A DNA stretch of 63,705 bases, counting the filler, from Aduncisulcus paluster (taxonomy: Eukaryota): NCBI GenBank assembly GCA_024181965.1. It is 5 parts of 5 records of this genome, joined end to end, with 100 filler letters (N's around TTAATTAATTAA, not from the genome) between each part and the next. Parts side by side here need not be neighbours in the genome. Positions count along the whole stretch, not along the records: positions 26,107 to 47,899 come from BQXS01010899.1; 4 more parts are not named here. One strand, written 5' to 3'. Shown here piece after piece: positions 3-59,173 of this stretch (the first letter of the stretch is position 1; each line of letters begins with the position of its first letter). The notes under the pieces are model-generated. The model had not been told where the DNA came from. It did not search any database and saw only the letters and a list, made by a program, of their open reading frames with translations. A program made the translations under genes and the position numbers.

Positions 3-1917
3 GAATGGAGAGAATCCGAGGAAAAGAAGAGGAAAGAAGAGGAGGAGAAGAGGAAGGAAGAGCAGAGAAGAGCTGAAGCTTGGCAGAAGATTGAAGAGCA
101 AGAAGAAGAGAGGAAAAGAAAGGAAGAAGAGGGGAAAAGAAAGGAAGAAGAGAGAAGAAAGGAAGAAGAGGGGAAAAGAAAGGAAGAAGAGAGAAGAAAG
201 GAAGAAGAGAGAAGAAAGGAAGAAGAGAGAAGAAAGGAAGAAGAGAGAAGAAAGGAAGAAGAGAGAAGAAAGGAAGAAGAGAGAAGAAAGGAAGAAGAAC
301 AGAAGAAAGGAAGAAGAGAGAAGAAAGGAAGAAGAGAAAAGAAAGGAAGAAGAGAGAAGAAAGGAAGAAGAGAGAAGAAAGGAAGAAGAGAGAAGAAAGG
401 AAGAAGAGAGAAGAAAGGAAGAAGAGAGAAGAAAGGAAGAAGAGAGAAGAAAGGAAGAAGAACAGAAGAATGAAGAAGAGTCGGAATCAGATGCCACTTT
501 ATATTTATCCCGATCTGATGAAAGCATCCCCAAAGAAGAAAACCCTGCAGAAAAGCTAAATATAGTTGAGAAAGTACAACATGAGTTGTGTCAATATTTG
601 TCATTTGGTATGCAATATCCACTTCTGATTAAGAAGTCTGGATTATGTCCCATATATCTCATGGGTGCCTCTGAAACTCTTACTCCTGGAAAACGACCCT
701 ATGGATCTGTCCGTCAACTATTGTTGGAGAAGAGTGGTGTGAAGTTTCAGTCACTTTCAATACCATTCAAAGATCCATGTTATCTCCGAAGGATTGTGCT
801 TTGTTTGTATAAGGCCCGATGTGCTCCAAAACGATTAATAGTGATGTTCCATCGTGCGGATAATACCTGTATTGAAAAAGGGTTTGATTTTAAAACTTTA
901 GAAAATGAATATGAATGGTTCAAACTAAGGGTTCATGTTGACAATGTAACTCGAGTAGATATTCATCATGACAAATCCTCAACGAAATTGGAATCAAGTT
1001 ATATTTATAGGATTCAGTTTTTCTCAAAGAAACCCTCAAAAAGTTCCTCGATTTCAACTAGTGAAATTGATCAAACCAGAAGCAGAGGTCCAAAACCTTT
1101 AATTTTTCCTTCAGTGGTCAAGGAAAGTCAAAATGATCTTGTTGACAAATCGAACAACGAAAAGACTCTGTCTTCTAGTGACTCTAAATCTATATTTCCT
1201 GATCTATTTTTAGAATCGGAGTCTGATTCCAAAGATGATGATTCTATTGTGCCCTTGGTAAAAATTAGAGCAAGGAGGCCTCAAGCTGACGCTATTATTT
1301 TTACTGATGAGATGATTAATGGAATTGATATCGAAAAGGAGCTTAAAGCGGCAGAAGAGGAAGAAGAAGAGGAAGAAGAAGAGGAAGAGGAAGAGGAAGA
1401 GAAAGAGGAAGAGAGGGAGAAAGAGAAGAATGAGAAGAATGAGAAGAAAGAGAAGAATGAGAAGAAAGAGAAAAGAGTTAAAAAGGGAGAGAAAAGGGTA
1501 AAAAATGGAGGAAAGCCGATAAAGAAGACTCTTGTTGCACAATCTTCTTCCGGTCGTGTTGAAAAAGAAATCGAAAAAAGTTATTCCGGCAAAGTTATTA
1601 TTCCGGCAAAGAGTAACCAAGATGGCACAACTGAAGAAGTTAAACAGCTTCTCGAACAGACTAGGGAGCAATTTCGTAAGTTTGAAGAAACGATGGCTTC
1701 TCCTGCATTGAAAAGGAGATTCAGTTCTCACGAGCCTCTTCTTTCGACTCCTATTGAAATGCTTGAGGAAGAGAAGAAGAAGTTAGCGGAAGAAAATGAA
1801 AAGCTAAAGCAAGAAAATGTATTGTTACGAGATAAAAATGCAAAGATGATGTCCGTTTTGTGTCAGATGGTTCAGATTGGAACTTCTGGACTAAGTTCTC
1901 AAGTTATCCCAAAATAG
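3..1917 (+). CDS. 5'-partial protein: RRKEEE charged helical repeat, one copy of the beta-sandwich-like domain found in the 28.5-34.2 kb kinase, poly-Glu tract, C-terminal coiled coil; 1-nt frame break near 300
   Basis: Frame 3 reads EWRESEEKKRKEEE...RRKEEE from base 3 to ~300; the same RRKEEE repeat continues in frame 1 from 301 to the stop at 1917. SLSIPFKDPCYLRRIVLCL...EYEWFKLRVHVDNV resembles the kinase repeats (SHLSIPFPSPCPMKGAYIC...YQWFYLPIGLDNI). Confidence 0.75.
   Translation, partial: NGENPRKRRGKKRRRRGRKSREELKLGRRLKSKKKRGKERKKRGKERKKREERKKRGKERKKREERKKREERKKREERKKREERKKREERKKREERKKNRRKEEERRKEEEKRKEEERRKEEERRKEEERRKEEERRKEEERRKEEERRKEEEQKNEEESESDATLYLSRSDESIPKEENPAEKLNIVEKVQHELCQYLSFGMQYPLLIKKSGLCPIYLMGASETLTPGKRPYGSVRQLLLEKSGVKFQSLSIPFKDPCYLRRIVLCLYKARCAPKRLIVMFHRADNTCIEKGFDFKTLENEYEWFKLRVHVDNVTRVDIHHDKSSTKLESSYIYRIQFFSKKPSKSSSISTSEIDQTRSRGPKPLIFPSVVKESQNDLVDKSNNEKTLSSSDSKSIFPDLFLESESDSKDDDSIVPLVKIRARRPQADAIIFTDEMINGIDIEKELKAAEEEEEEEEEEEEEEEEKEEEREKEKNEKNEKKEKNEKKEKRVKKGEKRVKNGGKPIKKTLVAQSSSGRVEKEIEKSYSGKVIIPAKSNQDGTTEEVKQLLEQTREQFRKFEETMASPALKRRFSSHEPLLSTPIEMLEEEKKKLAEENEKLKQENVLLRDKNAKMMSVLCQMVQIGTSGLSSQVIPK
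106..465 (+). repeat. Purine-rich coding tandem repeat, mostly 18-bp unit GAAGAAGAGAGAAGAAAG (RRKEEE)n
   Basis: Directly visible tandem array. Confidence 0.9.
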
Positions 1918-7634: not shown

Positions 7635-8069
7635 GATATTGCTTCGTATCCGTGATCAGCCAATGTCTGGCTGGCGTCATTCAGACTTATTAGTTTCATC
7701 ATAATAATTACCTGCACAAAATACCTTATTTTGAGAGAAAAAAAACATGTTATGTCAATTTTGGTGGTGTGTTCTGTTTAGATCTATTAATAACTTACTT
7801 TGACTTTTTCCTCTTGCTAATGATCTATTTTTTCTCATTGAATTTAACAATTATTATCTTATTCAGTGGTACGAAGATTATTTGGAAATCAGATAAATAA
7901 ATTAGTACTTTTTTGTTCTGAAGAAGCTACCTATTCATGACACTCCTGATCTGAATCACCAAAAACCAATCAAAACTTACCCATAGAAAGAAGCTATTTG
8001 TTTGCTTCACAGCAAAAAATTGTTGTTTTTTTCTCGTTTAACTTTATATATTTTGATATATGAGTCATA

Positions 8070-17135: not shown

Positions 17136-17831
17136 TTACTTCTTCTGAAAGAATTGAGTTCTTTTTGTTTGAAGCCATTCAGACACTGCTTTCTGCGTCA
17201 TTCCGCAAGTCTCGGCCAATTGCCTCAATTTTGTGGAGTTTGGGAAAGGAAATATGATATTTTCTAAGAACCAAAGATCTAATATTGCCGTCTTTTCCAC
17301 GGAAGTGGTATCTATCACTCGCTTGACTTTTTCAACGAAATGTTGATTTATCAGTGATAAATTTTGTTTATATTTCTCTCGTAATGAGTCTTCTTCACGT
17401 TTTAACAAATCTTTGGTTATAGAACATAGATTTGGATGATCCATCTTTTTCAATGAGGATAGCATGGCTTCATGCTTTGAAGAAACGATTTCAAACATTC
17501 TTTCATATTCCCTCGAAATATTACAGATGAAAGCGTTTCTATCTGGGTGTTTTGAAAGGAATTGCGTAAAATCCAATTTCCTACCTTCACCAAGGCTTGA
17601 AGACTGAGGTTTTGTTGTTAGAATTTTTTCGCAATATAAATTCAATGATTTTAAATGTTTGAAAAGTGGATGAAGTTTCATTTTTTCAGCTAATTCTGCG
17701 GGCTTGTGTTGTGGTGCTTGTACCTTAAGCTTGTGTGGATAATAATCTTTCTTCCTTGGAAAAGTCATTATAATTTTTAATTGGGGCTTTGTTGCATCAA
17801 AATGAAATGCTTTTGAAGGTGAAATTTTCAT
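17136..17831 (-). CDS. TALE-class homeodomain protein with an atypical recognition helix
   Basis: C-terminal TAILDLWFLENIIFPFPNSTKLRQLAETCGMTQKAVSEWLQTKR follows the TALE pattern L..WF..N...PYP....K..LA...G+T..QVSNWF.N.R. Confidence 0.8.
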   Translation of the reverse strand: MKISPSKAFHFDATKPQLKIIMTFPRKKDYYPHKLKVQAPQHKPAELAEKMKLHPLFKHLKSLNLYCEKILTTKPQSSSLGEGRKLDFTQFLSKHPDRNAFICNISREYERMFEIVSSKHEAMLSSLKKMDHPNLCSITKDLLKREEDSLREKYKQNLSLINQHFVEKVKRVIDTTSVEKTAILDLWFLENIIFPFPNSTKLRQLAETCGMTQKAVSEWLQTKRTQFFQKK

Positions 17832-17924
17832 TGACTGGTATTTTTTGGTTTGGGTTTTTGGGTTTTTGTATCTGGAATTTCTTGGTTCTATCCGACTTCA
17901 AAAATATGGTTTTGATACATCAAC

Positions 17925-19798: not shown

Positions 19799-19898
19799 NN
19801 NNNNNNNNNNNNNNNNNNNNNNNNNNNNNNNNNNNNNNNNNNTTAATTAATTAANNNNNNNNNNNNNNNNNNNNNNNNNNNNNNNNNNNNNNNNNNNN
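19799..19898. other. Artificial scaffold linker N44-TTAATTAATTAA-N44
   Basis: Six-frame-stop spacer embedded in Ns; occurs four times in the window. Confidence 0.97.
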
Positions 19899-26006: not shown

Positions 26007-26106
26007 NNNNNNNNNNNNNNNNNNNNNNNNNNNNNNNNNNNNNNNNNNNNTTAATTAATTAANNNNNNNNNNNNNNNNNNNNNNNNNNNNNNNNNNNNNN
26101 NNNNNN
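26007..26106. other. Artificial scaffold linker
   Basis: N44-TTAATTAATTAA-N44. Confidence 0.97.
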
Positions 26107-26107
26107 C

Positions 26108-27592
26108 TTCAAGAAACAGAAAGAGGAGCTTGATGAGCTTGAAAGACATGCTAGTATCGCGGAAAGAATCGAGGAAGACGGGGAAGAAGAGGAAGAATAT
26201 GAAGCTGGGGAGAATGAGAAAGATGTGTATGAACATGAAGCCAGTTTCAGTGGAAAGCATGAGGAAGAAGAGGAAGAGGAAGAAGAGGAGGAGGAGGAGG
26301 AAGAAGAAGAGGAAGAATATGAAGAGTCTGAAGGATTCGAAAATGCCGGTCACACTTCTTCACAAACTTCCCATCAAGTATCTGAAGGGTTCACTCCTCC
26401 TTCAAAGGGTTCCTTGGTGAGTGTTGAAGATTCCAGAAATCAAACGCCTTCCCCTCATCGCCCTCGTATCCCACCTCTCCATATTGTTGGTGAAGGTGAT
26501 TCTCATCGTAAGGGAGGAGCTGATCGTGGTCCTTCTTCCCTTGCTCATGAGATTGGGTCTTCCAGTCTGAAACCAAGTACAGGTAAAGATGCACCTGCTC
26601 TTATTCAATCCCATTTGCACACAATGCAAACTCTCCAACACAAGGAAGGTGCCAGATGGGCTGGCTTCCCTTCATCGGTAAGTCGAACTTCACAGCCTTT
26701 CTCTCCCCTTGAGGGGGAAAGAGAAGTGAGTGAGCCAGATAGTGCTGCCACAATCAATCTCGTGCCTCAGAAACCTCTCATGCCACAGAAAAGTCCTCGG
26801 GAAATTTCTGCCATATTCATGTCAAAGGAACAGGCCAGGGAACAAGAAATAGTTGAGCGTGGTCGCATTCAGAGGCAACGCAATCAACAATTACTTCAAC
26901 AAAAGCGCCAATATCAACGCCATCAAGGACAGCGTCGTGGTTTTGTTGGGTCTTCTTCATTCTTGAAACGTGGAGGAGATGAACCTACTTCTTTCAATCC
27001 TTTTGCTCCATCTCCCTCCACATCTACTCCAAATCCTTCGATATCCAGCACTCCAAGTGGCAGACCTTCATCCTATAGTCGTCTTCACCGTCGTTCATCA
27101 TCAAGAACTCGTGTTGCTGGTTCATCTTTCTCTTCAACATCAATATCTCCCAGTCACTCGGCTATTGGTGGATCCAGAGTCTTGAAATTGTCGACCCTAC
27201 TCACTGATAGTACATTCCATCCCCATCTTGAATCATTTATCAAGGCACAAGGAGGGACTCAGACTTCAATTTGGTATAACGCTCTTCGTTTCTACATTGA
27301 TTCCAGGAAATTTTATAATGAAAAATCTGGATCTCGTGCCAAGACTCTCGCCGAAACCATTGTTACATGCTATATCCATGAAGATGGTGAGAGAAGTGTG
27401 AAGCACTGTGTTTCTCCAATCAGTAAGCGTGAGATCATGCGTGAAATTTCAAAGCCTATTCCTTCACGTGATATGTTCGTTACGGCAGAAAATGAAACAT
27501 ATAGCTTCTTGTCTCGAGTTGTTTGGCCAAGATTCCTTAGATCCGACGAATATCGTGCCTTGATGCTTCAAATGAATGAAATGCAAAGTTAA
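26108..27592 (+). CDS. 5'-partial protein with a C-terminal RGS (regulator of G-protein signalling) domain
   Basis: LSTLLTD...LESFIK...NALRFYIDSRKF...AETIVTCYI...MFVTAENETYSFLSRVVWPRFLRSDEY; frame open from the scaffold start. Confidence 0.85.
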   Translation, partial: FKKQKEELDELERHASIAERIEEDGEEEEEYEAGENEKDVYEHEASFSGKHEEEEEEEEEEEEEEEEEEEYEESEGFENAGHTSSQTSHQVSEGFTPPSKGSLVSVEDSRNQTPSPHRPRIPPLHIVGEGDSHRKGGADRGPSSLAHEIGSSSLKPSTGKDAPALIQSHLHTMQTLQHKEGARWAGFPSSVSRTSQPFSPLEGEREVSEPDSAATINLVPQKPLMPQKSPREISAIFMSKEQAREQEIVERGRIQRQRNQQLLQQKRQYQRHQGQRRGFVGSSSFLKRGGDEPTSFNPFAPSPSTSTPNPSISSTPSGRPSSYSRLHRRSSSRTRVAGSSFSSTSISPSHSAIGGSRVLKLSTLLTDSTFHPHLESFIKAQGGTQTSIWYNALRFYIDSRKFYNEKSGSRAKTLAETIVTCYIHEDGERSVKHCVSPISKREIMREISKPIPSRDMFVTAENETYSFLSRVVWPRFLRSDEYRALMLQMNEMQS

Positions 27593-27856: not shown

Positions 27857-28460
27857 TTAATCGTTGAAATAAAGTAGATATACAAGTAAATTATTTTGTA
27901 TCATGCTATTTTCCTCATTCATCTCCTCACATCTCCGAGGTAGATTCTTCTCACTGGCTCTGATCCCAACCCTATTCATGTTCAACAACATCGACTCGAT
28001 GGTCTCACTAATAACTCCAGCAGAACCACCATGTTTCATACGTTGCTCACGGATAATGTCTTTAATACTTGGACATTTGAAGTCTTTTCCAATTCTGGGA
28101 AGGAAACGCTTGATTGATTGGATTTTGACATGAGCTTGATGAACTCTCATCATTCCACATTCATTTCTACTTCCAAATATAGTCGATTATTTCCCCTCTT
28201 CCTTTTTCTTTGGCATTATTATCCGATGTCCACTGCTATCGCTCTCAATAAAGACATAGTATCTTGATGAGCACCACATCACTGTCTGAGACATTGACAT
28301 AGAAATTTGTGTGGTTGATAAAGAAGTTTGTAAACCTTTGTTTCTTTACCATTTTTATCAGTGAACGTATCTCCAACTTCCTTAGTTCTTTCTTTTTCAT
28401 AGGAAGAAGCATGACGAAATTCCTTTTCATATCTTTGTTGTTCTGGATCTTGAGCAACTT
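27857..28460 (-). pseudogene. Degenerate fragments of a paralogue of the adjacent kinase C-terminus
   Basis: MRVHQAHVKIQSIKRFLPRIGKDFKCPSIKDII aligns with kinase MSVHEACTKVQIIKHLLPNIGEGFEYPSIEDIV; 28381-28430 (SSYEKERTKE) resembles 28711-28760 (PSYAKERTKE). Confidence 0.7.
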
Positions 28461-28503: not shown

Positions 28504-31500
28504 TTATTCCGCTTCTTTTTCTTTGGGTATGATAATCCTTCGACCACGGCTATCAATCTCATCAGTAAACGACATTATATCTCGGTGATCATCCACAGAA
28601 CTCTGTATTGTTGATGATTCCATTGATTTCATTCTAGAATTCCTATATTCTTCAGACTCAAGACCATAAGAACTTTCCTCAATGCGACCATAATCTTCGT
28701 GAGCTTCTTCTTTAGTTCTTTCTTTAGCATACGAAGGAACATCACGAGAGTCTTCCTCCTTACTTTGGATTGTTGATACACGTGAAACTTGACCATCCTT
28801 TTCTTTTTCCCTCTCATCTTGCATTTCCTCTTCGATGCATCCAGAGTTCCCTTCATACTTTGCAAGCTGACGTTTAACAATATCCTCGATGGATGGATAT
28901 TCAAACCCTTCTCCAATATTTGGAAGTAAATGCTTGATTATTTGTACCTTCGTACAAGCTTCATGAACACTCATACGTTTATCTTCATCGAGTTGTGTGA
29001 GACCTGTGAATACTTCATTCAAACATGCATGAACAGGTTGGAATTTCCCATCTTCAATTGTTCGTAATGTTTTGAAGAGATCAGAAGAACATAATTTGGG
29101 AACTCTATTCTTTTCCATCAACTTCAGCATAATATCCATAATATCACAATTATTAACAACACCTCGAAATACAGGCAAGGAGATGAAGGGATGAGTGCAT
29201 TGGAATAATGAAAAAATGGACATTCCAAGAGAATATCCATCACTCTTTTGAGTCTGTTTTCCTTCACAGAGAGTCTCATAAGAATTATACACGATAGTTC
29301 CACACGCAGAAGGTTTAGGTTGTAAAATTCGTTTTTCTTGTTTGGTGGGAGAAGAGGAAGGAATATTATTCTTGGAAGTTACAGATAATGTTATAGAATC
29401 TAATACTTGGACCATTCCAAGATCAGAAAGAACAATGGTACATTTCTTTGAATCAGGATCAACACGAACGAGGAAGTTATCAGGTTTGACATCTCGATGC
29501 ACAAGCTTTGGTTTAGCCGTGAACACATCATCAAGACATTCAATCATTCCAACACAGAGAGAACACATTTTTACAGGATTTAGGGTCATGGGATCAATAG
29601 ATTTGTAAAAACCACTATCTTCTTCTGAAGAGCATTCTTCTTCATCCTCTTGAATGCACCAACTTCTAGCAAAATCTTTAACACTACCTCCAGCACAATA
29701 TTCCATGATAAATCCATATTCCCCTTTCATATCTGCATCAAGCAGGTCAAGAATGTACAAAGGACGTGGGATACGATTGAAACATTTGCCATTCATAAAC
29801 AATTTCTGTTGCATCTTGAACTCCTTTCGACACCCTTCCACAACAATTTTATCCGCAATTCGAAGCATCTTCTTCAGAACACATGGGAAAGAAATTCCAT
29901 CAACTTTCACAAGAAGAACTTCTCCAAATCCACCATGACCAATGACGCACTGAGGAGTGATAGATGACGATGAAGTTAGGGTTAAGGAATCATGCTTGGC
30001 TATCCCCTTAAAATTTTCCTTATGTTTCTCTGGAAATACATCTTTGGGTGGTTGTTTCTCATGGAAATCCTCAATATTGCTGGCTTTCTTTTGTAGCTTG
30101 TCGGATAAAGTGTAGGAAATAGGAGTAAGATCAGAAGAAGTTTGAAAATCTTCATTTCTTATAAAAACCAAGGAGTAAAGGAAAAAGTATCGGCTATTCA
30201 TCAATCGAAACCTTCCTTTCCCTTCAATCTCACATAAAACAATGTTTGATAACTCAATAGGAAGGTAGAGCCATTGATATAAGAATGGAGGTTTTGTGAA
30301 TTCATACTTCTTGGATGTCTTATTATCATCAGAATCAGTGAAAGTGAAGAGAAGAGAGGGTGAACTATCTTTCCAATGAATGCAGATACAAGCACCTTTC
30401 ATTGAACAAGGTGATGAAAAAGGAATATAAAGGTGAGATAAGGATACACCACATTCTCCCATGATCATTTTTTTTGCATTTATACTCGTATCATAGTCCG
30501 TAGATTCCTTGGTTACTGATACATCCTTCCCCTTAACCAGTGAGAATGAAGGGTTTATAATAAATGGATCATCACGTGGAATGGGAATAGAATCTATTGC
30601 TTCACTCTCATTATCTCCTTCCTTCATGAATAGAGGTTTCACAATTGAAGCTTCAGACCATTGTATCTCTCTAGATTCACGAAATATAGTTTCTTCATGG
30701 GTTTCTTTTCTTATGAAAATAAGAGATTCTATTCTATAATATCTAGTTGAATCATATCTAGCTGAATGTCCAGCTATATCTATAGCTTCCTCGTCTTCCT
30801 TTCTTCCTTCCCCAGTAATCTCACAGAAAGCAACATCAGGGAGATCGATAGGAAGGAAATACCAACAACAATCACAAGAATATCCCTCAAATATGCATTT
30901 CTTGGATATTTTGTGCCCTAATGAAGATATAAAGGTAAAGAGAAGATCAGTAGGAGGATTCCAATAGTAATTTAGACATATATATATGCCTTCCATCGGA
31001 GTTGACGGAGAAAAAGGAACAGAAATATGAGTGATATTTCCAGAATCACACTCTAATTTCATCATAGCTTGTACCTTTGAACTCTGATCAATCTCTAACT
31101 CGGTTGTATTGATTGCTTTAATTGTCGAAAAGTGTGGAGAAACAATATTAGGAGCATCACCACAAATTGGAACACAACTTCTGTATCCATTAGAAATAAA
31201 CTCTGGCTCAATTGGATTTGGATCCCTTTCTCTTTCTTTATCTTGAATAAAAATATCTTTGAGAGCTGGAATACCTTCACTTCGAATAAGAACACTTCTC
31301 TCTGGCTTAATGTTTTGAATATCTGCATTTCCAATGAAAATAAGGGAGCATATTGAGAAGCTTCGACTGTTTCTTTGACACCATTTCCCTTTTCCTTCAA
31401 TCTCACACAGAATAATATGATCTAAATCAATAGAAAGGAGGAGCCATTCACAATCATGTTTAGGACGAGTAAATTTATACTTTTTTGATACCTTTTTGCC

Positions 31501-34155
31501 ATCACTATTAGTAAAAGTGAAAAGAAGAAAGGGTGAACTATATAATTTATGCACACAGATATAAGCACCTTCCATATGACAAGAGGGGAAAGGGATGGAA
31601 AGATGGGTTAATGTAACATCACTTTCCCCTTTCAATATCTCTTGTGCATCTAAACTTGGATCATAAAACTTAGATTCCAAGCAATAGGAATCATTTTTCC
31701 CCCTAACCAAAAAAAATGAAGGTTTTATAATTTTTGGATCATCAAGTCGAATGGGAACGAAACCTTTACCTCCTTTTCTTATGAACTCTGGTATGATGAC
31801 TGTGGCTTCATCCCATAAATCCTCTTTAAATTCAATAATTCTAGTTTCCTCAAGGGTTTTGTTTCGAATGAACACAATCGGTGAAATATTAAAATCTTTT
31901 CCAACTCTTCCTTTCCCTGAAATCTCACACAGAACAACATTATAAAGATCAATGGGAAGGAAAAACCAATGACATCCATTCCCAACAAAATCACCCATGT
32001 CCTTCAAAGGGTTAAATTTATCAATAAATTCTGAAAAATCGTATTTCTTTGTTATTTTCTCACCTTTTGAAGTTGTGAAAGTGAAAATAAGATAAGATGG
32101 ATCACCCCAGTATTTATCGAGGCAAATATAAGCACCTTTCATTGGAGATAATGCAAAGGGCAGGGAGATATGGGTAATTTTCCTCGAACGATTCTCTCCT
32201 TTCACCATCTTTTGCCCATAAGCACTCTGATCGTACTCTTCATCTTTTTTGGTTATGTTGATTGCTTTAATATTCGAATATTCTGGATTTATGATATTGG
32301 GAGAATCATTAGGAATTGGAATGCAACTCCTATTTCCTTCATAAACATATTCTGGTTTGATAATTCGAATAAATTTCTTCTCTCTTTCTAGATCGCCAGG
32401 TGCAATCATTGACATAAACTGAGGATAAGTTGCAATATCATCATCTCGAATAAAAACAAGAGAATATATGTCGAAACCTCGACTATCTCTCTTATTCCAC
32501 TTTCCTCTCCCATTAATTTCACACGAAATGATATTTGGCAAATCAATAGGAAGAAAGTGGCATTCATATCGATATTTTGGCTTTGTGAATTTATATTTCT
32601 TGGATATACTCTTGCCATCACAATCAGTGAAAGTGAAGAGAAGAAAAGGTGAATAATAATTCATATGTAAGCATATATAAGCACCTTTCATGGGACAAGG
32701 TGATGAAAAAGGGATGAAAAGATGGGATAAGGATACAGAAGCTTCTCCCATTAACATTCTTTGTGCATTTGAACTCTGATCATACCTCTTAGAATCCTTA
32801 CTAAATCTAGCATCCTTTCCATCAACCATTGAGAATAAAGGTTTCACAAACTTTGGATCATCACGAGGAATAGGAAAAAAATCTCTACCTTTTAATTTTA
32901 TATCTCCTTTCTGTACAAACTCTGGTTTTACAACTGGAGCAAAATACCAAATCCTTTCTCTGGCTATACGAGCTGTAATTTCTTCTTCGCTTTCTTCTCG
33001 AATGAAAATCAGGGAATAAATTTCAAAACTTTTACACTCTTCCATTTCAAACCTTCCTTTTCCTTCAATATCGCACAAAACAATATTATCCAAACCAATA
33101 GGAAGGTAAAACCATTGATATGAAGGATGGCTACTTTCAAATTCTTTCTTGAATTCATACCTCTTTGGAAGGAAGTGCTGCTTCCATTCATCTTTGGGTT
33201 TTGTGAATTCATACTTCTTGGATGTCTTTTTACCATCACAATCAGTGAAAGTGAAGAGAAAAGAGGGTGAACTCCAATTCTGATGAACACAGATATAAGC
33301 ACCTTTCATTGGACAAGGGGACGGAAAAGGAATGGAAAGATGGGATAAAGATACGTAATCTTCCCCCTTTAACATTGCTTGAGCTTCCAAACTCTTATTA
33401 TAGAAACTTGAATCCTTCTCATAGGTATCATTTGTCCCCTTAACCATTGAGAATGAAGGGTTAATGAGGATTGGATCATCATGATCGATAGGAATAGAAT
33501 CTCTACCTTGAGATTCTTCATCTCCTTTCTTAATAAACTCTGGTTTCATAACTGGAGTTTCAGACCATAGTTTCTCTCTTGATTCGCGAGCGATAGAAGC
33601 AACAATTTCATCTGGGCTAAAGAAGATAAGGGATTGAATTAGAAAAGGTTCCTCTTTTCTCTCTTTTCTGATAATCTCTGTTCCTGTAATCTCACACAGA
33701 ACAACATCAAAGAGATCAACAGGAAGTAAAAACCAATTATTAAATTCAAATTTCGGAAATACATATTTTTTGGACATTTTCTCACCTTTTGAAGATGTAA
33801 AGGTGAAAATAAGATGAGATGGAGGAGAATAGTTTTTATCAAGGCAGATATAAGCACCATTAATTGGAGAAGATGATACAAAAGGAAGGGAGATATGGGT
33901 AACCTGCCCTGAATTCATATTCTTTCCTTTCATCATTCCTTGCACTTCATAACTGTGATCATAGCCTTCCTCGTCCTCTTTCTTGGTTATATTGATTGCT
34001 TTGATATTAGAAAACTCTGGACTCTTAATATCGGGAGAATCTCTAGGAATTGGAATGCAACTCCTATCTCCTTGATGAACATACTTAGCTTTAATGATGT
34101 GGAAGGTAGAGGAGGGTAATTGATAATAGGAAGGTGAGTGAATGTCTCGGCTCAT
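28504..34155 (-). CDS. Ser/Thr protein kinase (~1883 aa) with seven N-terminal ~170-200-aa beta-rich tandem domains
   Basis: IGHGGFGEV, VLKK, HRDVKPDNFL, SDLG, CGTIVYNSYE, KSDGYSLG. Repeats carry IPxxxDxP, SIPF, GAYIC and LPIDL motifs. First ATG is at 34155. Confidence 0.92.
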   Translation of the reverse strand: MSRDIHSPSYYQLPSSTFHIIKAKYVHQGDRSCIPIPRDSPDIKSPEFSNIKAINITKKEDEEGYDHSYEVQGMMKGKNMNSGQVTHISLPFVSSSPINGAYICLDKNYSPPSHLIFTFTSSKGEKMSKKYVFPKFEFNNWFLLPVDLFDVVLCEITGTEIIRKERKEEPFLIQSLIFFSPDEIVASIARESREKLWSETPVMKPEFIKKGDEESQGRDSIPIDHDDPILINPSFSMVKGTNDTYEKDSSFYNKSLEAQAMLKGEDYVSLSHLSIPFPSPCPMKGAYICVHQNWSSPSFLFTFTDCDGKKTSKKYEFTKPKDEWKQHFLPKRYEFKKEFESSHPSYQWFYLPIGLDNIVLCDIEGKGRFEMEECKSFEIYSLIFIREESEEEITARIARERIWYFAPVVKPEFVQKGDIKLKGRDFFPIPRDDPKFVKPLFSMVDGKDARFSKDSKRYDQSSNAQRMLMGEASVSLSHLFIPFSSPCPMKGAYICLHMNYYSPFLLFTFTDCDGKSISKKYKFTKPKYRYECHFLPIDLPNIISCEINGRGKWNKRDSRGFDIYSLVFIRDDDIATYPQFMSMIAPGDLEREKKFIRIIKPEYVYEGNRSCIPIPNDSPNIINPEYSNIKAINITKKDEEYDQSAYGQKMVKGENRSRKITHISLPFALSPMKGAYICLDKYWGDPSYLIFTFTTSKGEKITKKYDFSEFIDKFNPLKDMGDFVGNGCHWFFLPIDLYNVVLCEISGKGRVGKDFNISPIVFIRNKTLEETRIIEFKEDLWDEATVIIPEFIRKGGKGFVPIRLDDPKIIKPSFFLVRGKNDSYCLESKFYDPSLDAQEILKGESDVTLTHLSIPFPSCHMEGAYICVHKLYSSPFLLFTFTNSDGKKVSKKYKFTRPKHDCEWLLLSIDLDHIILCEIEGKGKWCQRNSRSFSICSLIFIGNADIQNIKPERSVLIRSEGIPALKDIFIQDKERERDPNPIEPEFISNGYRSCVPICGDAPNIVSPHFSTIKAINTTELEIDQSSKVQAMMKLECDSGNITHISVPFSPSTPMEGIYICLNYYWNPPTDLLFTFISSLGHKISKKCIFEGYSCDCCWYFLPIDLPDVAFCEITGEGRKEDEEAIDIAGHSARYDSTRYYRIESLIFIRKETHEETIFRESREIQWSEASIVKPLFMKEGDNESEAIDSIPIPRDDPFIINPSFSLVKGKDVSVTKESTDYDTSINAKKMIMGECGVSLSHLYIPFSSPCSMKGACICIHWKDSSPSLLFTFTDSDDNKTSKKYEFTKPPFLYQWLYLPIELSNIVLCEIEGKGRFRLMNSRYFFLYSLVFIRNEDFQTSSDLTPISYTLSDKLQKKASNIEDFHEKQPPKDVFPEKHKENFKGIAKHDSLTLTSSSSITPQCVIGHGGFGEVLLVKVDGISFPCVLKKMLRIADKIVVEGCRKEFKMQQKLFMNGKCFNRIPRPLYILDLLDADMKGEYGFIMEYCAGGSVKDFARSWCIQEDEEECSSEEDSGFYKSIDPMTLNPVKMCSLCVGMIECLDDVFTAKPKLVHRDVKPDNFLVRVDPDSKKCTIVLSDLGMVQVLDSITLSVTSKNNIPSSSPTKQEKRILQPKPSACGTIVYNSYETLCEGKQTQKSDGYSLGMSIFSLFQCTHPFISLPVFRGVVNNCDIMDIMLKLMEKNRVPKLCSSDLFKTLRTIEDGKFQPVHACLNEVFTGLTQLDEDKRMSVHEACTKVQIIKHLLPNIGEGFEYPSIEDIVKRQLAKYEGNSGCIEEEMQDEREKEKDGQVSRVSTIQSKEEDSRDVPSYAKERTKEEAHEDYGRIEESSYGLESEEYRNSRMKSMESSTIQSSVDDHRDIMSFTDEIDSRGRRIIIPKEKEAE

Positions 34156-34894: not shown

Positions 34895-37800
34895 TCAACT
34901 ATTATTCACCTTTCTGACCAACATCATGAGGCTTTGTTGAGGAATGAATGATGTTCCTCGACACTCCCGCATTACTTTCACTGTATTAAATATCCCAACG
35001 CATTTAATCATAACGTCAAAGAGATGATTAAACAATAAAACATGCTGTGCTTCCTTAGATTTATCATATTCGATTCGACAGACACATCGCATCACATCTT
35101 TCCAGACAAGAATATCACTCAGATTATGAGAATCAGCGTTTGTATCAAGGAATTTAAGGCAGTCAAGAGCTCCAATAACTGAAAAACAGGCCTGAATGAA
35201 AGCAGAAAGCTCTGACAGTTTGACTGAATGAGCGAGAGCAATCCCAAAGATTTTGTAACAGAGTTTAACGATCATTTCTTGCCGCATTGAAGACAAATGC
35301 TTCACATGAGTGAAACCAGGAAATCTGTGAAATTGAAGGACATCAACAAACCCTTGAAGAAGGAAAGAAATAGGACAAAACTGCAAAATAAATGGGAAAA
35401 GTTGCTCAGAAATAAATAAATGAACATCTTCCATCGATTTTTTGTCTTGTCCAAAACCATCTTCCACGGTCAATTCCTTTGAATTGGAAGATACATTCTC
35501 ATCTCCTCCAAGTATCCATAAATATAGAACTCTAGCCACACATAATGACTCAGAAATGGAATCTTTACACGCTTTGACAAGTGAAACTACATGTTTGATT
35601 GATGGATTCTTCAAAAAAGAATAAAGACAATCATTAATCGAAATCTCTTTGTCTTCAAGAATGATGCTTTGAGATCCATCTCTAGATTGCCCAATCGCTG
35701 GAAACAGTGTTGATACCAATGAACTCACATCAGAGAGACACACACTTTCTGAATCAAGGCCAGTGAGGTTACGCAACAATATTTTGGTTTTGGTGAATAT
35801 TGTCTCTTTCTTCGAAGATACAAACGACTGTGCTCCATCTTTGGAGAAGAATAAATCTATTTTATCCTTGAAATCAGCAAGAATATGTTCATGGGAGTCA
35901 CATTTTTGTGTCAAAAGCGTGTTAATTTTGTTGAGGAGAGTCGTATGAACTCCAAACTGAGGAATATGGCTATATTTAGAACTCCAGACATCTATATTCT
36001 CCTTCAGTGTGGTCTTAAAGTGTGAGATATGTTTAGAAATACCTGAAACTCGAAGATCAATCTCAGATCTAGGCACTGAATCTGAAGATACTCCAAGACA
36101 TTTGAGGTTATGAGAAAGAGTTCCAATAGAATATGAGATAGTTCTTTCTGTTTCTAACAATTCCAAAAATATCCCATTAAGTTTCTCAAGCTCATCAAAA
36201 CAGGATATTTCCTCCTTTTCAATATCACTGAGAAACTCACAACTGGCCTTTCCCCCGAGTGAAAACAAGGATGAATGTGCTGAATATTGAGTAATTATCT
36301 GTCGTTGTCTCTCTGATTCTCTCTCAAGAGATTTCTTTTCCTTCGATTGCAGAGCTTGAAGTTCGATACCATTCCGTTCCTCTTCTTCCTCTTCCTCCTC
36401 TCTCTCTTCCTCTTCTTTTGTTATTAAATATTCATAATTTGTATGAGATTCACTTTCTTTCGATCTATTATGGACCTTAATCTTCCTCTTGATAGAAAGC
36501 AACACCTTTGCAAGGGAATCAGCGATTGCAGAGGAACGATTCAACAAAGACGTGTAACTGCTTGGGAAAGGAATTGAACAAGGGAGTAATTTCCAATGTT
36601 TCCGATGCTCAATTCGTTGTGTTGCTTCCTGAAGCCCTACCGAGCTATCAAATTGATCCCCGTACATCAAATGTAACCGTCTTCTGCGTTCCCATCTCTC
36701 CTCTTCTTTCACCTTTATCTTATCTTTGGACTTGATAGCTATTTTAATCGTCCCTTCGCTCAAAATAGAATAAGGAAGTGTGAGAGATATTGGGATATTC
36801 TCCTCTTTTTCTGATAAATCTCCTCTAAGTTCAAGCTTTTTCTTTCGATCTTGTTTGATCCGTTCGATTTCAACCCCCACAGGAAAAGAGAGAGGAAGAG
36901 TACTTGTTGAGAGAGAGGGAGAGAGAGAAGAGAAGACATCAGGAGGTGGGGAAAATAATAATGTAAGGTTTTTAGTCACAGGAGAATCAAGAGGAAGAGA
37001 TGGTTTCCCATGTTCTCCTTTATCTTCCTCATCGCCCTCCTCTCCTTCTTTGCCTCGTCCTTCTTCTTGAGGTATGTTGCTATTTTTAGTTATTTGTTTC
37101 TCAATAGACCCACTATCAGTATCAGCCAGATCAGAAGACTTACTTTCGTCTTGAGTTACTTGATGGTCTGTTATCATTTCTCCCTCTTTGCCAAGAATAG
37201 AATGAGATGCCTTGTCATAACACCAATCTTTAACAGAGGTATGGACAGGGTGGAAGACATCTCCGTCTCTGACTAAGACACTCGGTTGCACAGAGAATGG
37301 GATGATTGGCTGTGTAAATGAAGGTATATAAGGATGTTCCTTCGATAATGGAGGCAAAGACACTTCAGGAGCCATGTCAATAACACTATGCAAGGCTCCA
37401 ACAACGGAGTCATCACATATGGTCACATCTTTGGGCTCAATCTCATTCCCTTCACTCCCTTCACTGTCCCACAATGAAGTATCCTCCTTGCTCTGGCCTT
37501 GTCGAACCATATGAGGAAAGGCCCACCATTTCCATGCACCAACAAGGAGTTTCTGGGGAACGTTTGTCCGTTGAATCTCTTGCAAGGCTCGAGTTGATAG
37601 TGACGTTTCATCGATAGTGGTATCTGACAACAGTTCGCTTGAAGCCCCATGGGAGGGAGTCGATGCCGAATGGTCTCCACGAGATGCAGGAGAGAGCACA
37701 GAGGAGGTTGAAAGGTTGGACGTCGAAGAAGAGGAGATAGGAAATTGACTGCCAGGTTCTGGGGAATCAGTAGAAACCCCGGCTAGTTCATCCGTTTTCT

Positions 37801-40540
37801 TTTTCCAGGCGGCATCTTCTTTTTCACGTTGAATTCTTGCCTCTTCACGCTGAATATCTAACAAAGCTTGTTCTTCAGCAAGACGCTTGTCTTCAATTTC
37901 CTGTTTTTCTCGTTCCTCAAGTTGAGTTCTTCTCATTTTACCACTCACAACTTGTTGCATCATTGCCGAGAGGGACGTGACAGAAGAGGAATAAGAAGCA
38001 GCATATTCAGTGTGAGAAGAAACCGAATATAATCTATTTTTNNNNNNNNNNNNNNNNNNNNGCACAGAGGAGGTTGAAAGGTTGGACGTCGAAGAAGAGG
38101 AGATAGGAAATTGACTGCCAGGTTCTGGGGAATCAGTAGAAACCCCGGCTAGTTCATCCGTTTTCTTTTTCCAGGCGGCATCTTCTTTTTCACGTTGAAT
38201 TCTTGCCTCTTCACGCTGAATATCTAACAAAGCTTGTTCTTCAGCAAGACGCTTGTCTTCAATTTCCTGTTTTTCTCGTTCCTCAAGTTGAGTTCTTCTC
38301 ATTTTACCACTCACAACTTGTTGCATCATTGCCGAGAGGGACGTGACAGAAGAGGAATAAGAAGCAGCATATTCAGTGTGAGAAGAAACCGAATATAATC
38401 TATTTTTGGAACACAAATATAATGTATCTTGTTTGAATGTATCTTGTGATGTTGTTTTTGCAGATGCTCCAAGTCCCATTCCCAAGCCACTTCCAATCAT
38501 TCCAGGTTCAACAGATGATCCAGTACATATTCCAACAAAATCTTCCACTGCTGGGACTCGAACCCACGTGCAATCCTTCACATTCTCGGGAGAGAAAGAT
38601 ATCATTGATCCAGTTGACGATAGAGAAACGATTGAATGAGGTGGGTGAGACAAGAATGAGAGGGTGCTAATAATTGTTGAAAGTAAACCTGAGGATTTAA
38701 GAGTAAATTCATAACCTTGCTTTTGGTCCGTTTCACCCTCTTCTTCCTCTTTTTCTCCTTCATCCTCCTTCACAACTAATTCATCCTCTTCCACTCCTTG
38801 TGACTCTTTGTCTGATGTCTTTTCAGCATTATCTACACCTTCTGATAGTTCTTTACCTTGCTGAATGTCAGATTTATCCTCTATAACATCAATCAGCGGA
38901 CAATACTCACTTGTAAAGCCAAAATCAATATCTCCACACTCTTTCTCACTCTCTATAGCATCAATATGCATCATTTGAGACTGTTTCTTCTTTATAATCC
39001 ACCTTTTCCTGATCCATAAACGCTCATCCTTCTCCTCTTGCCTCAAGATCTGAGCACAAACATCGAGATCGATAGCAGCTCCGTTATTCTCACAAAGAAC
39101 AGAGAGAAGACCGAGACCAGGTTGAGGTTGGGCTGTAGCTCGAGTTGTTACTAAATTTAGATCGGTCTGATGCCAATCTCCACATCCACACTCGAACTGA
39201 GCATTTTGAGGAGATGTCAAGTTCTGTTTCATTTTCAATGTGGCCAATACTTTCTGGAATGACGATGAAAAAAGAAACGATTTACATCCAGGACGCGACG
39301 AAAAAATAAATGTTGGATCATGAGTTGAACCCTCTGCGGATGAGGAAGAAGAGGTTGACTTCTTAACAAATTCTTTTTTCCCATCATCTTTCGATGCTTC
39401 AACGTCTTGAGTTACCTTATCCTCACTCGCTTTTGCCAGTTCTAATGCCTTCTTTTCAGCAGCTAATTCCATTGCAGCCAATGACTTCTCAAGGGCTTCA
39501 CCACTGTGTAACCCTTCACAAAAAACAGCATTAAACATTCCCGTTCTCTCTTTTTTCCCAATTCGTTGAGCCCCACATGCTTTGATTGCCCGTCCATCAA
39601 GAGCTGCAGTCAAAACAGACCGCAGATCAGGGAAGAGGACGAGGGTGCTCCATGATGTTGATGAAGAACAACATAATAATGGCATATCCATGGAAGAAGA
39701 AAGGGAGAAACAGGATTCTGATGGAGCCGTCAACAAAGGATATGAAAGTGATGTCATCTTGGAAGGAGGTGAAAGGGATGGAATATCATCACAAGGCATA
39801 TGAGAACGTGAGAAAAATGAGAATAACAACAAACTATGCAACTTTGTCTGCGAAGAAAAGACTTTTTGCGGCGATCCAACTTCTATTGTGGAAAAACCTA
39901 GTTGACGAATAATACTAACAAATACGACACCATCATCTGTCGAAAACATAACATACCATATTAAAGGCTTCGAAAATGTATATTTTGGCATAGAATCAGG
40001 AATAACAACAAGATTAAGCAATCGTTGATATGGACTCAATAACGGCACCAAATGCTTCATATCTTTCTGTTTTGAGGTTCCAGAAGTTATTTCCGATGTG
40101 AAAGATTCAATTTTTTGTTCCTTGAGCTCCTGGGAATATGCTTTAGAGAAAAATAATTCAGTAGTTTTGATATCTGATCCTAATAGACATACCGCCAGAG
40201 CAGATATCGCCGGATAATCTACCAGAGATATAACAGAACCCACTTCAACAGGAGTCAAAATATCTCCAAGATGCGGAATAACAAAAACCACAGCATCTTC
40301 AGAAATAACAACTAAAAACGACCCATCATAGGAAGACTTTATATGTAGAATAGGCGTATGTAGTTCTGGAACTGAAATAAGCTTATGTAATTGACCAGAA
40401 CTCCCGATAAAACTGTACAGAGAACCTGTATTTGTACCTAACAAAATAAAACCAGCAACATGATGAAATGCTGTATATCTTAGTCTAACTGTTTGTTTGG
40501 AAAATATTTTATCTAAATAAGCTTTGAATTCAAGCTTCAT
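34895..40540 (-). CDS. HPS5: HPS5/TECPR2-family beta-propeller protein (BLOC-2 subunit-like), ~1759 aa after collapsing the duplication
   Basis: LRYTAF...FILLGTNTGSLY, RIGKKERTGMFNAVF and IFSSRPG match recalled HPS5/TECPR2 motifs (KIGNKERDGEYGACF, IYCARPG); helical C-terminus. Confidence 0.62.
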   Translation of the reverse strand: MKLEFKAYLDKIFSKQTVRLRYTAFHHVAGFILLGTNTGSLYSFIGSSGQLHKLISVPELHTPILHIKSSYDGSFLVVISEDAVVFVIPHLGDILTPVEVGSVISLVDYPAISALAVCLLGSDIKTTELFFSKAYSQELKEQKIESFTSEITSGTSKQKDMKHLVPLLSPYQRLLNLVVIPDSMPKYTFSKPLIWYVMFSTDDGVVFVSIIRQLGFSTIEVGSPQKVFSSQTKLHSLLLFSFFSRSHMPCDDIPSLSPPSKMTSLSYPLLTAPSESCFSLSSSMDMPLLCCSSSTSWSTLVLFPDLRSVLTAALDGRAIKACGAQRIGKKERTGMFNAVFCEGLHSGEALEKSLAAMELAAEKKALELAKASEDKVTQDVEASKDDGKKEFVKKSTSSSSSAEGSTHDPTFIFSSRPGCKSFLFSSSFQKVLATLKMKQNLTSPQNAQFECGCGDWHQTDLNLVTTRATAQPQPGLGLLSVLCENNGAAIDLDVCAQILRQEEKDERLWIRKRWIIKKKQSQMMHIDAIESEKECGDIDFGFTSEYCPLIDVIEDKSDIQQGKELSEGVDNAEKTSDKESQGVEEDELVVKEDEGEKEEEEGETDQKQGYEFTLKSSGLLSTIISTLSFLSHPPHSIVSLSSTGSMISFSPENVKDCTWVRVPAVEDFVGICTGSSVEPGMIGSGLGMGLGASAKTTSQDTFKQDTLYLCSKNRLYSVSSHTEYAASYSSSVTSLSAMMQQVVSGKMRRTQLEEREKQEIEDKRLAEEQALLDIQREEARIQREKEDAAWKKKTDELAGVSTDSPEPGSQFPISSSSTSNLSTSSVXXXXXXXKNRLYSVSSHTEYAASYSSSVTSLSAMMQQVVSGKMRRTQLEEREKQEIEDKRLAEEQALLDIQREEARIQREKEDAAWKKKTDELAGVSTDSPEPGSQFPISSSSTSNLSTSSVLSPASRGDHSASTPSHGASSELLSDTTIDETSLSTRALQEIQRTNVPQKLLVGAWKWWAFPHMVRQGQSKEDTSLWDSEGSEGNEIEPKDVTICDDSVVGALHSVIDMAPEVSLPPLSKEHPYIPSFTQPIIPFSVQPSVLVRDGDVFHPVHTSVKDWCYDKASHSILGKEGEMITDHQVTQDESKSSDLADTDSGSIEKQITKNSNIPQEEGRGKEGEEGDEEDKGEHGKPSLPLDSPVTKNLTLLFSPPPDVFSSLSPSLSTSTLPLSFPVGVEIERIKQDRKKKLELRGDLSEKEENIPISLTLPYSILSEGTIKIAIKSKDKIKVKEEERWERRRRLHLMYGDQFDSSVGLQEATQRIEHRKHWKLLPCSIPFPSSYTSLLNRSSAIADSLAKVLLSIKRKIKVHNRSKESESHTNYEYLITKEEEEREEEEEEEERNGIELQALQSKEKKSLERESERQRQIITQYSAHSSLFSLGGKASCEFLSDIEKEEISCFDELEKLNGIFLELLETERTISYSIGTLSHNLKCLGVSSDSVPRSEIDLRVSGISKHISHFKTTLKENIDVWSSKYSHIPQFGVHTTLLNKINTLLTQKCDSHEHILADFKDKIDLFFSKDGAQSFVSSKKETIFTKTKILLRNLTGLDSESVCLSDVSSLVSTLFPAIGQSRDGSQSIILEDKEISINDCLYSFLKNPSIKHVVSLVKACKDSISESLCVARVLYLWILGGDENVSSNSKELTVEDGFGQDKKSMEDVHLFISEQLFPFILQFCPISFLLQGFVDVLQFHRFPGFTHVKHLSSMRQEMIVKLCYKIFGIALAHSVKLSELSAFIQACFSVIGALDCLKFLDTNADSHNLSDILVWKDVMRCVCRIEYDKSKEAQHVLLFNHLFDVMIKCVGIFNTVKVMRECRGTSFIPQQSLMMLVRKVNNS
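37696..38407. other. Assembly artefact: 346-bp duplication (37696-38041 / 38062-38407) around a 20-N gap
   Basis: Same sequence flanks the gap. Confidence 0.9.
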
Positions 40541-40721
40541 GATGTGTGGGAACAAAAAATGTATTTGTTTTCAAGGTGAAATTAAAAATAATGAATTTCG
40601 ACTAAAATTAACCTTATATGGGTATACACGAATATTTTATTTGTTTTTGGCTCTGGAAAATAAATGGATTCCCTCGACACGACTTCTTTCCCAAATCACT
40701 CTGTTTGACCCAATTAACCAT

Positions 40722-47899: not shown

Positions 47900-47999
47900 N
47901 NNNNNNNNNNNNNNNNNNNNNNNNNNNNNNNNNNNNNNNNNNNTTAATTAATTAANNNNNNNNNNNNNNNNNNNNNNNNNNNNNNNNNNNNNNNNNNNN
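47900..47999. other. Artificial scaffold linker
   Basis: N44-TTAATTAATTAA-N44. Confidence 0.97.
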
Positions 48000-51871: not shown

Positions 51872-52199
51872 GTGGGATTCTGTTTAATTTTGTTTCTTCG
51901 AAGAAATGGAAGTCATTTTTTTTGTTCTGGGGTTGTACAGATTTACAACAGTTTTACTTTATTAAAATAATTATTTATTCCATTTTAAATCATTTTATTT
52001 TTATGAATCCGTATTTTCAATCAGAGGATGCTGGAAAAATAGATAGATATTACAAAAAAAAGAAGGTAACTAAAAAACTTCCATGAGATTTTTATGAATA
52101 TTGAGAAATTTAATTCTGGAATTTTATACTTTCCACTGGAAGCTGGCAGGTTGGATATGATCATCGTCTCATACATTTGTATCCACAATCAATTTCAAG

Positions 52200-52895
52200 A
52201 TGATTCGGAAAACTTATATTTGTTTATCTATTGTTTTCCTTTTTATCTCTCTTGTTTTTTCTCAACAATTGAATATTCATTTTGACCTCACTCCAAGTAT
52301 CGCCAATACTGCCAAAGGTATTGATGAAAAATGTCATCAATATGATCCTAGTGATGACATTTGGTTAAATGATTATATGAAACCACATGTTACATTGTAT
52401 TTAGCCGAATTTCTTGATGAATACATTGCCGATGTTGTAGCAGCAATTAGGATTGCTTTGCTTGGATGTTCATCATCTTTTACATATGCCACAGAAACTC
52501 ATTATGCTTCTGGCTCTTATCTTATGTGGTCAACAGAAAAACCCGAGGCTATGCAAGTTTTGTCGAATTGTATCGTACTTGCCACCAGTCAATTCCGGGA
52601 TCCAAATGCTGAAATGCCGCAATGGATTTTGGATTTGCCCGATGGGGATGAAAAAGACCGTAAAGAATCTTATTTTAATCAATACGGATCTCCAAACGTT
52701 TTTGATGAATTTTATCCTCACATTACTCTTGCTTATGACGATAATGCTAATAATATTTCATTTTTGGAAGAACAAATACCTCAACCCGATATTTTGACGG
52801 GAACAGGCTGTGATGTTGTGGTCGGACAAGTTGGACCCCATGGTTCTGTTATTAAGGGACAATCGCTGGCTCAAATTCATTTAGATTGTTACTAA
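52200..52895 (+). CDS. 2H-phosphoesterase superfamily protein with a signal peptide
   Basis: Two HxT motifs (KPHVTLY, YPHITLAY); N-terminal ICLSIVFLFISLVFS. Confidence 0.8.
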   Translation: MIRKTYICLSIVFLFISLVFSQQLNIHFDLTPSIANTAKGIDEKCHQYDPSDDIWLNDYMKPHVTLYLAEFLDEYIADVVAAIRIALLGCSSSFTYATETHYASGSYLMWSTEKPEAMQVLSNCIVLATSQFRDPNAEMPQWILDLPDGDEKDRKESYFNQYGSPNVFDEFYPHITLAYDDNANNISFLEEQIPQPDILTGTGCDVVVGQVGPHGSVIKGQSLAQIHLDCY

Positions 52896-59073: not shown

Positions 59074-59173
59074 NNNNNNNNNNNNNNNNNNNNNNNNNNN
59101 NNNNNNNNNNNNNNNNNTTAATTAATTAANNNNNNNNNNNNNNNNNNNNNNNNNNNNNNNNNNNNNNNNNNNN
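59074..59173. other. Artificial scaffold linker
   Basis: N44-TTAATTAATTAA-N44. Confidence 0.97.

Follow-up and report, generated by a model that had tools for sequence, protein, structure and literature searches.

DOC domains, known from APC10/Doc1, HECTD3, HERC2 and CUL7 (PF03256), are cytosolic jelly rolls whose exposed loop residues set substrate specificity (PMC13018541), and the same fold is found in CBM32 and F5/8 type C (discoidin) domains (PF00754, PF22633), which are represented by BF3416 and occur in tandem in ZmpB. In fungi, the intracellular HNWD/NLR proteins (het-d, het-e) exchange repeats between genes and carry few positions under diversifying selection (PMC1805685), and in plants the variable sites of hypervariable NLRs (hvNLRs) are rich in aromatic residues (PMC8226289). 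Giardia, a fornicate relative of Aduncisulcus paluster, shows a lineage-specific expansion of 198 Nek kinases, 133 of which carry variable ankyrin arrays (Nek/TALM-ankyrin) and 71% of which are inactive, together with pseudogenes, the kinase-less Protein 21.1 siblings and a fast-turnover GL4 subfamily, with distinct localizations (PMC3218828). Here we analyze a gene of A. paluster (GenBank assembly GCA_024181965.1) on the minus strand at positions 28504..34155 of a stretch of 63,705 nucleotides joined from five parts (hereafter, the window), whose product, P0001, carries seven jelly-roll repeats followed by a protein kinase. We lean toward reading this gene as a member of a lineage-restricted, cytosolic, diversifying recognition repertoire that is wired to a kinase and binds changing, probably foreign, proteins.

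The P0001 module shares with DOC domains its jelly-roll fold (Z 10.6–12.2; root-mean-square deviation, rmsd, 2.7–3.4), a profile homology of 93% and a cytosolic setting, but it lacks a Pfam match and the YWQS segment and NHxGG loop of DOC domains, forms tandem arrays and is joined to a kinase instead of belonging to a ubiquitin ligase, and is hypervariable and present in hundreds of copies. With CBM32/F5-8 domains it has in common the fold (Z 11.0–12.4) and the tandem occurrence, whereas it again has no Pfam match, its two repeat types are arranged differently from the ZmpB pair (rmsd 11.7), and signal peptide, glycoside-hydrolase context and conserved ligand-end loop residues are all absent. 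Although the A. paluster proteins resemble HNWD/NLR proteins in their predicted intracellular setting, in repeat exchange and in the few diversified positions, and hvNLRs in the aromatic-rich variable sites, they carry neither a STAND (NACHT or NB-ARC) NTPase nor LRR, WD40 or TPR repeats; their sensor, a globular jelly roll of 165 amino acids (aa) that comes in two subtypes, is joined directly to a Ser/Thr kinase as effector, and the host is a unicellular metamonad. With the Giardia Nek/ankyrin proteins they share a lineage-specific kinase expansion in fornicates, variable repeat arrays, kinase-less siblings and pseudogenes, but they place the kinase C-terminally rather than N-terminally, use jelly rolls instead of ankyrins, and keep the catalytic residues. 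Transmembrane receptor-like kinases differ from P0001 in that the latter has no signal peptide or transmembrane helix by hydropathy scan.

The P0001 reading frame runs from 34155 to 28504 without an internal stop, is of single-exon length and encodes 1883 aa: an A-B-B-A-B-A-B array of repeats of ~165 aa, a linker, a kinase and an acidic tail, in the order, frame and coordinates initially annotated. All on the minus strand, the type A repeats are A1 (33610..34116, aa 14–182), A2 (31858..32382, aa 592–766) and A3 (30703..31230, aa 976–1151), the latter two with a loop insert, and the type B repeats are B1 (32992..33570, aa 196–388), B2 (32440..32952, aa 402–572), B3 (31324..31818, aa 780–944) and the kinase-proximal B4 (30151..30663, aa 1165–1335). 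The two types are separated by identity (46–58% among A, 53–62% among B, 35–44% between A and B), and each repeat scores 190–250 bits on the family profile, far above chance; the match of B1 is split (197 + 58 bits) because of a low-confidence 22-aa insert in a variable loop. A polar linker of ~60 aa (29971..30150), which varies in length and sequence among paralogues, leads to the kinase (28834..29970, aa 1396–1774), and a low-complexity acidic tail of 109 aa (28507..28833) ends the protein. The type A and type B motifs given in the initial annotation are present, although the RSC of type A proved specific to this gene: the family consensus there is xxxCCPIP, in which the three positions before CCPIP are hypervariable. 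With a polar N-terminus, no hydrophobic segment or hydrophobic N-terminus, and a maximum 19-residue hydropathy of 1.52 in a hydropathy scan (not SignalP), the predicted product is a soluble, cytosolic protein, which agrees with the annotated lack of a signal peptide and transmembrane helix.

AlphaFold2 models of the AB pair (mean predicted local distance difference test score, pLDDT, 87.7; predicted template modeling score, pTM, 0.81) and of B4 alone (pLDDT 96.7) allow the module to be assigned with confidence to the galactose-binding-like jelly rolls. In VIA-align, B4 matches CBM32 (Z 12.4, rmsd 3.3, 139 residues aligned) and yeast APC10 (Z 12.2, rmsd 3.4, 152 aligned), followed by human APC10, more CBM32/F5-8 domains, the DOC domain of HECTD3, muskelin and IFT25, and the top match of AB is the tandem CBM32 of ZmpB, with Z 13.3 but an rmsd of 11.7. 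Foldseek with B4 puts APC10 first; of the 14 matches with E ≤ 0.001, APC10/Doc1 chains make up 11, with much redundancy among them. A viral structure library gave weak jelly-roll matches only. At the sequence level, the family profile matches the DOC domains of the same genome (93.4%, E 2.6e-7, 119 columns), and a profile built without these domains ranks them first among the non-family open reading frames (ORFs) of 1762 (18–19 bits). In hmmsearch the DOC domains score 6.5–23.5 bits against 5.1 for the F5/8 protein of the genome, a comparison with single-sequence controls only (PITH, CEP104-N and the F5/8 protein), which mostly score lower, as do half of the DOC sequences and the partial APC10-like ORF. 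The DOC-type jelly roll proposed in the initial annotation thus reappears in the models, in Foldseek and in profile homology. In the Pfam scan, no repeat of P0001 found a match; PF00754 or related models matched none of 53 diverse members at E ≤ 5, the YWQS segment and NHxGG loop of the genome's DOC consensus are not in the module, and by profile the module was found in the PDB only as one chance match at E 1.7 in one search and not at all in another. With Pfam membership and these DOC signatures both missing, the module is by the defining tests not a DOC or CBM32 member, but it is probably derived from an APC10-type, protein-binding DOC domain. No ubiquitin-ligase family (cullin, HECT, BTB, APC/C) was seen in P0001 or in 76 relatives, for each of which the best 5–25 families were considered. 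The genome has 11 ANAPC10 matches, three of the eight scanned also matching BTB, and the nearest sequence relatives of the module are some nine canonical DOC-domain proteins, 420–640 aa long (L092–L101), which form a small expansion of their own; these canonical proteins look like cullin-3 substrate adaptors.

The module combines a nearly fixed frame with a small set of hypervariable positions, 13 in type A (176 modules) and 15 in type B (225 modules) exceeding 2.8 bits of entropy; 1 A and 11 B modules scoring under 120 bits were excluded, as were sequences that contain N or are rich in gaps. Most of the variable sites lie in four loop segments that would form the ligand end, several of them alternating on strand ends, so that the variable sites may share one ligand face; this placement follows strand order, from secondary structure and the topology of the fold, rather than coordinates. 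The ligand-end loops hold no invariant residue, while the turns at the far end are conserved (proportion of non-synonymous differences, pN, 0.04–0.05), and W, Y, N and D are enriched 1.8–3.7 fold at the variable sites; H and R are enriched there too.

Selection was assessed on pairs with distances up to 0.2, the median nucleotide distance in the young homogenized clade being 0.21–0.23. Whole-module dN/dS is ~0.7 in disjoint close pairs and framework pN is far below the proportion of synonymous differences (pS), whereas at the cross-validated top sites pairwise pN reaches 0.35 against a global pS of 0.13 and a local pS of 0.24. A codon mixture model with 80 sequences of each type gave twice the log-likelihood difference (2dlnL) of 117 for A and 174 for B; at a matched n = 52, 2dlnL was 51–65 for A and 113–125 for B versus 0.0–0.4 for the family kinase (beta/alpha 0.2–0.3), with 12 null simulations at or below 18.7. 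Single-base non-synonymous to synonymous differences at variable codons amount to 229:9 in A and 306:19 in B, a count that is partly circular as the sites were picked by entropy. Positive selection at 13–15 sites, with a negative kinase control, thus bears out the claim that the loops diversify. Diversity-generating retroelements produce adenine-specific variation from one template codon. Mutagenesis of this type was considered and rejected, as all bases vary at all three positions of the variable codons (no reverse-transcriptase search was made).

The family to which P0001 belongs is large. A first look at the genome returned 1374 B, 1388 A and 479 kinase candidates (150 of each module type and 108 kinases being scored), which are not copy numbers; 297 distinct family proteins were gathered, 93 of them with the family kinase and 102 of them plain AB pairs, and their module hits total ~818, slightly too many because some hits are split. 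They make up about 2% of the 15,316 predicted proteins of A. paluster (PMC9933649) and are mostly recorded as 'hypothetical protein'. A profile of the 53 diverse modules found 204 representatives at E ≤ 0.001 among 1.84 billion sequences, and the source species was A. paluster in all 201 relatives whose source was looked up and in all 30 most divergent ones chosen among the best 150 of the 204. Pattern scans, which reach close relatives only, gave 219 hits in metagenome, 66 in viral and 74 in prokaryote contigs, none of them confirmed; an Atlas search with B2 returned no hit at or above 0.9, and a divergent member led to a single unnamed cluster, scoring 0.91 on no more than 141 shared features. 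We found no description of the family by title or abstract start, although subscription journals, supplements or structure-classification databases could hold an annotation. Divergent modules (12–35% identity) form a further, older layer and stand alone, in arrays or on the same kinase. A C-terminal LLPW(K/E)-type motif occurs in 71 of the first 172 proteins, and genomic reads confirm a real stop there. We thus encountered neither an already known family with fixed architecture nor a low-copy gene without loop diversification, and the expanded system that had been suggested for this locus is borne out by the hundreds of proteins with and without the kinase.

The arrays follow a grammar and yet are shuffled. 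An A is followed by a B in 213 of 248 cases and by a partial or divergent module in 23 more, and the kinase follows a B 75 times and an A twice, while the kinase-bearing proteins display 43 different module strings, a number inflated by partial calls. For six of the seven P0001 repeats, 33–164 modules of other genes are closer than any other repeat of P0001 itself, for which reason recent internal duplication was rejected as the source of these six, and only 28 of 271 modules find their nearest neighbor within their own protein. Linkage among 108 young AB pairs decays to the background level within ~10–30 bp, as would be expected either of heavy exchange or of a star-like burst accompanied by recurrent change. 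Together with the varied module strings, these patterns support exchange of modules between genes, as read from sequence, and with it the shuffling initially annotated; 149 of 180 closed ORFs carry whole modules only. AB-only genes (L002, L010, L014, L016, L020, L021, L024, L026, L031, L036–L038, L053 and L065) fall into a few families of near-identical 3′ flanks, which points to recent duplication with flanks. Contigs of a sequencing run span the B1-B2, B2-A2, B3-A3, A3-B4 and B4-kinase junctions of P0001 but are no evidence for or against expression, as the run could consist of DNA or be the very source of the assembly; a hint only is the EukProt record of one divergent member, whose identifier is of transcript style. 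Two AB genes (L009:351–755 and L018:342–665) are closely followed by thioredoxin ORFs, with which named gene models merge them, although the ORFs are separate in L009. Fusions with additional domains in gene models (thioredoxin, ABC transporter, AAA, IRE1, PARP, LRR) were not counted as real, since P0132 and P0034, the two fusion models checked, span separate ORFs.

The kinase matches PF00069 at aa 1404–1735 (E 6e-14, 52.5 bits against a cut-off of 31.7). It has GxGxxG at 1406, K1428, E1445, HRDVKPDN at 1553–1560 (with D1555 and N1560), DLG at 1578, G-T at 1619–1620, SYE at 1625–1627, D1639 and R1727, so that the DLG for DFG, the SYE for APE and the intact HRD initially annotated are all found. 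HRDxKxxN and G-T are marks of a Ser/Thr kinase. The equivalents of K1428, E1445, D1555, N1560 and D1578 are kept in all 52 full-length paralogues, which as best hits are biased to intact copies; the catalytic residues are intact at the sequence level. DLG is present in 51 of the 52, and in SYE the S is kept in 50 and the E in 49, with one divergent member retaining APE. Both motifs are family traits rather than signs of decay. Profile matches in the PDB are weak and mixed (NDR, CDPK, Aurora, PAK and RIPK1; best E 2e-12), with no Nek among the best 60 of 703. Across the 52 paralogues the surroundings of helix G in the C-lobe are far more variable than the rest of the kinase, without positive selection, and this variability could alter substrate docking.

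Taken together, the conserved frame with its variable, aromatic-rich end, the variable polar tether and the conserved, intact kinase suggest a binder that is coupled to a kinase, and since DOC domains recruit substrates through exposed loops (PMC13018541), we favor binding of changing, probably foreign, proteins. Each module would present, on a conserved framework, ~13–15 exposed positions, mostly in the four loops and on the strand ends beside them, which positive selection has diversified and which have been shuffled between hundreds of paralogues, with A and B acting mostly as an AB pair and B next to the kinase. The array would most likely bind a changing target protein, perhaps an effector or particle from a bacterium or virus living inside the cell, or material that leaks from prey. 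Multivalent binding on a flexible tether could then bring kinases together or present the bound protein to the kinase, in the way that DOC domains, which bind peptide degrons or protein substrates, hand substrates over to ubiquitin ligases, and the kinase-less AB proteins may sequester, mark or compete for the same targets as decoys or tags. That the ligand is a protein rather than a glycan is, on balance, the reading we prefer; its foreign origin, the immune or prey-sensing role suggested in the initial annotation, control of the kinase by binding, the route of activation and the expression of the family are presumed in this scheme. A bolder version, a germline-encoded, antibody-like cytosolic immune repertoire built on a DOC-derived jelly roll, a scaffold never before put to this use, in which paratope-like codons would be recombined among hundreds of genes by very short conversion tracts (variable codon pairs often differ at 2–3 bases while the codons beside them are barely affected), the kinase would provide the read-out and kinase-less AB proteins would act as decoys, is put forward only tentatively, and we are inclined to doubt it.

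Other readings of the same architecture concern the ligand and its origin. In one of them, the sensor kinase carries CBM32/F5-8-like lectin modules that read varied foreign glycans in the cytosol, from the cell walls of prey or symbionts or from viruses. Aromatic and polar residues suit sugar binding. Moreover, CBM32 ties with or leads APC10 in VIA-align, tandem CBM32 of ZmpB tops the AB matches in spite of its high rmsd, the Atlas leads are F5/8 and CBM32 clusters, and A. paluster is cultured on food bacteria (PMC9933649). However, the lack of any match to PF00754 or related models among the 53 members and the preference of the profile for DOC over the F5/8 protein make this rather unlikely. 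Lectin families retain a fixed sugar-binding core, and CBM32/F5-8 domains have a calcium site and conserved sugar-binding residues, whereas the ligand-end loops here have no invariant residue, and variation over nearly all residue types suits protein targets. Alternatively, the modules might target kinases and scaffolds to endogenous cytoskeletal or signaling partners, a housekeeping diversification like that of the Giardia Nek, ankyrin and 21.1 proteins, which the split into kinase-bearing and kinase-less members parallels and with which the older divergent module layer would agree. To this we assign a low probability, since ongoing positive selection at fixed sites in a young homogenized clade is more in keeping with an external target that keeps changing than with stable partners within the cell, 52 of 52 paralogues have an intact kinase versus 71% inactive Neks, and no Nek appears among the best 60 PDB matches.

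The signal itself could be deceptive if the family had spread by selfish or neutral amplification, through segmental duplication and gene conversion, and if recombination, hot spots of mutation or the assembly had produced the appearance of selection. Shared 3′ flanks, frameshifted copies, partial modules, a fragmented assembly, the near absence of tree signal and a local pS raised by path counting would all be expected on such an account. However, linkage is also low in the kinase (r2 0.04–0.05), which shows no positive selection, so that recombination alone does not make the signal; framework pN remains far below pS, conserved codons adjoining variable ones show only a slight rise in pS (0.14–0.16 versus 0.10–0.11), the variable sites are biased to W, Y, N and D, and most closed ORFs contain whole modules only. 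We therefore regard this account as quite improbable. Self/non-self recognition between conspecific cells, in fusion or cannibalism, as with fungal het-d and het-e, seems more improbable still: to our knowledge cell fusion is not known in A. paluster, and the Pfam scan of P0001 found neither a STAND NTPase nor a death effector. The HNWD genes do share the recipe of repeat exchange and a few positively selected surface positions, but they number ten against the hundreds of genes here (PMC1805685).

Several observations weigh against our preferred reading of a diversifying, protein-binding repertoire of DOC ancestry. The codon model was written for this analysis, on a grid and with kappa kept constant, and codon differences at 2–3 bases, which separate 34% of variable codon pairs but ~1% of conserved ones, can, like recombination, inflate codon models. 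Over whole loops of B, pN (0.233) is about equal to local pS (0.228), with 0.245 against 0.182 in A, so that the selection signal is site-specific. A single species and a single draft assembly supplied all the data, partial modules occur in 31 of 180 closed ORFs, some genes are frameshifted, and the kinase sample is biased as noted above. As to ancestry, CBM32 and APC10 tie for B4, so structure does not separate DOC from CBM32; Pfam ANAPC10 is matched by none of the 53 members at E ≤ 5, four of eight single DOC sequences fall below 5%, the partial APC10-like ORF of the genome scores like a reversed control, and a divergent member has F5/8 and CBM32 clusters as its Atlas neighbors, at 0.85–0.87, which, being below 0.9, are leads only.

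Within the window, the evidence near the gene is weaker than the initial annotation claimed, yet it is replaced by the genome-wide evidence. The copy at 613–1026, taken there as stand-alone, is a divergent family member (18–27% identity to the repeats; 125 bits on a broad profile that includes this copy) spanning 574..1032 (+) within a charged protein of 638 aa, whose ORF (1–1917, +) is open at the 5′ end. As a second divergent module lies upstream on an overlapping contig, and as the copy is on contig C10897 and the P0001 gene on C10899 (window 26107–47899), the copy is neither stand-alone nor shown to be linked to that gene. Of the relics annotated beside the gene, a family remnant is indeed present directly downstream (27995..28442, −), with parts at 27995–28150 (46% over 52 aa, E 3e-9) and 28377–28442 (75% over 68 bp), but it is the broken kinase C-terminus and tail of another family member, and a search for a jelly-roll relic beside the gene found none. 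The neighbors on the same contig are an HPS5-type beta-propeller protein (34895–40570, −; E 3e-9) and an RGS-domain protein (26108–27592, +; E 7e-10). At 19799–19898, 26007–26106, 47900–47999 and 59074–59173, paired runs of 44 N join unrelated contigs, and genes flanking them are not neighbors. Gaps of 20 N with duplicated flanks (38042–38061 and 4936–4955, also in L071 and L099) are assembly artefacts that double protein blocks; they can inflate repeat counts elsewhere, but none lies within the P0001 gene. On another contig, 50267–51883 (−) encodes a glycoside hydrolase of family 5 with a C-terminal domain (PF00150, E 8e-24; PF18564), and 52161–52895 (+) a 2H-phosphoesterase-like protein with weak matches to 2′-5′ RNA ligase and anti-CBASS Acb1, all below cut-off. 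The window also holds a TALE-type homeobox protein (17136–17897, −), a HAD hydrolase (7020–7634, +) and a metallo-beta-lactamase-fold protein (8064–12068, +).

How free-living protists recognize intracellular invaders is largely open, and the family described here is a concrete candidate, offering a small, well-folding soluble module with ~12 predicted specificity positions and a simple kinase read-out. If our reading is true, the logic of NLR and HNWD proteins, that is, a conserved frame, few selected sites and repeat exchange, would have arisen independently on a DOC/CBM32-type fold in metamonads, and the family would constitute a natural library of compact binding scaffolds.

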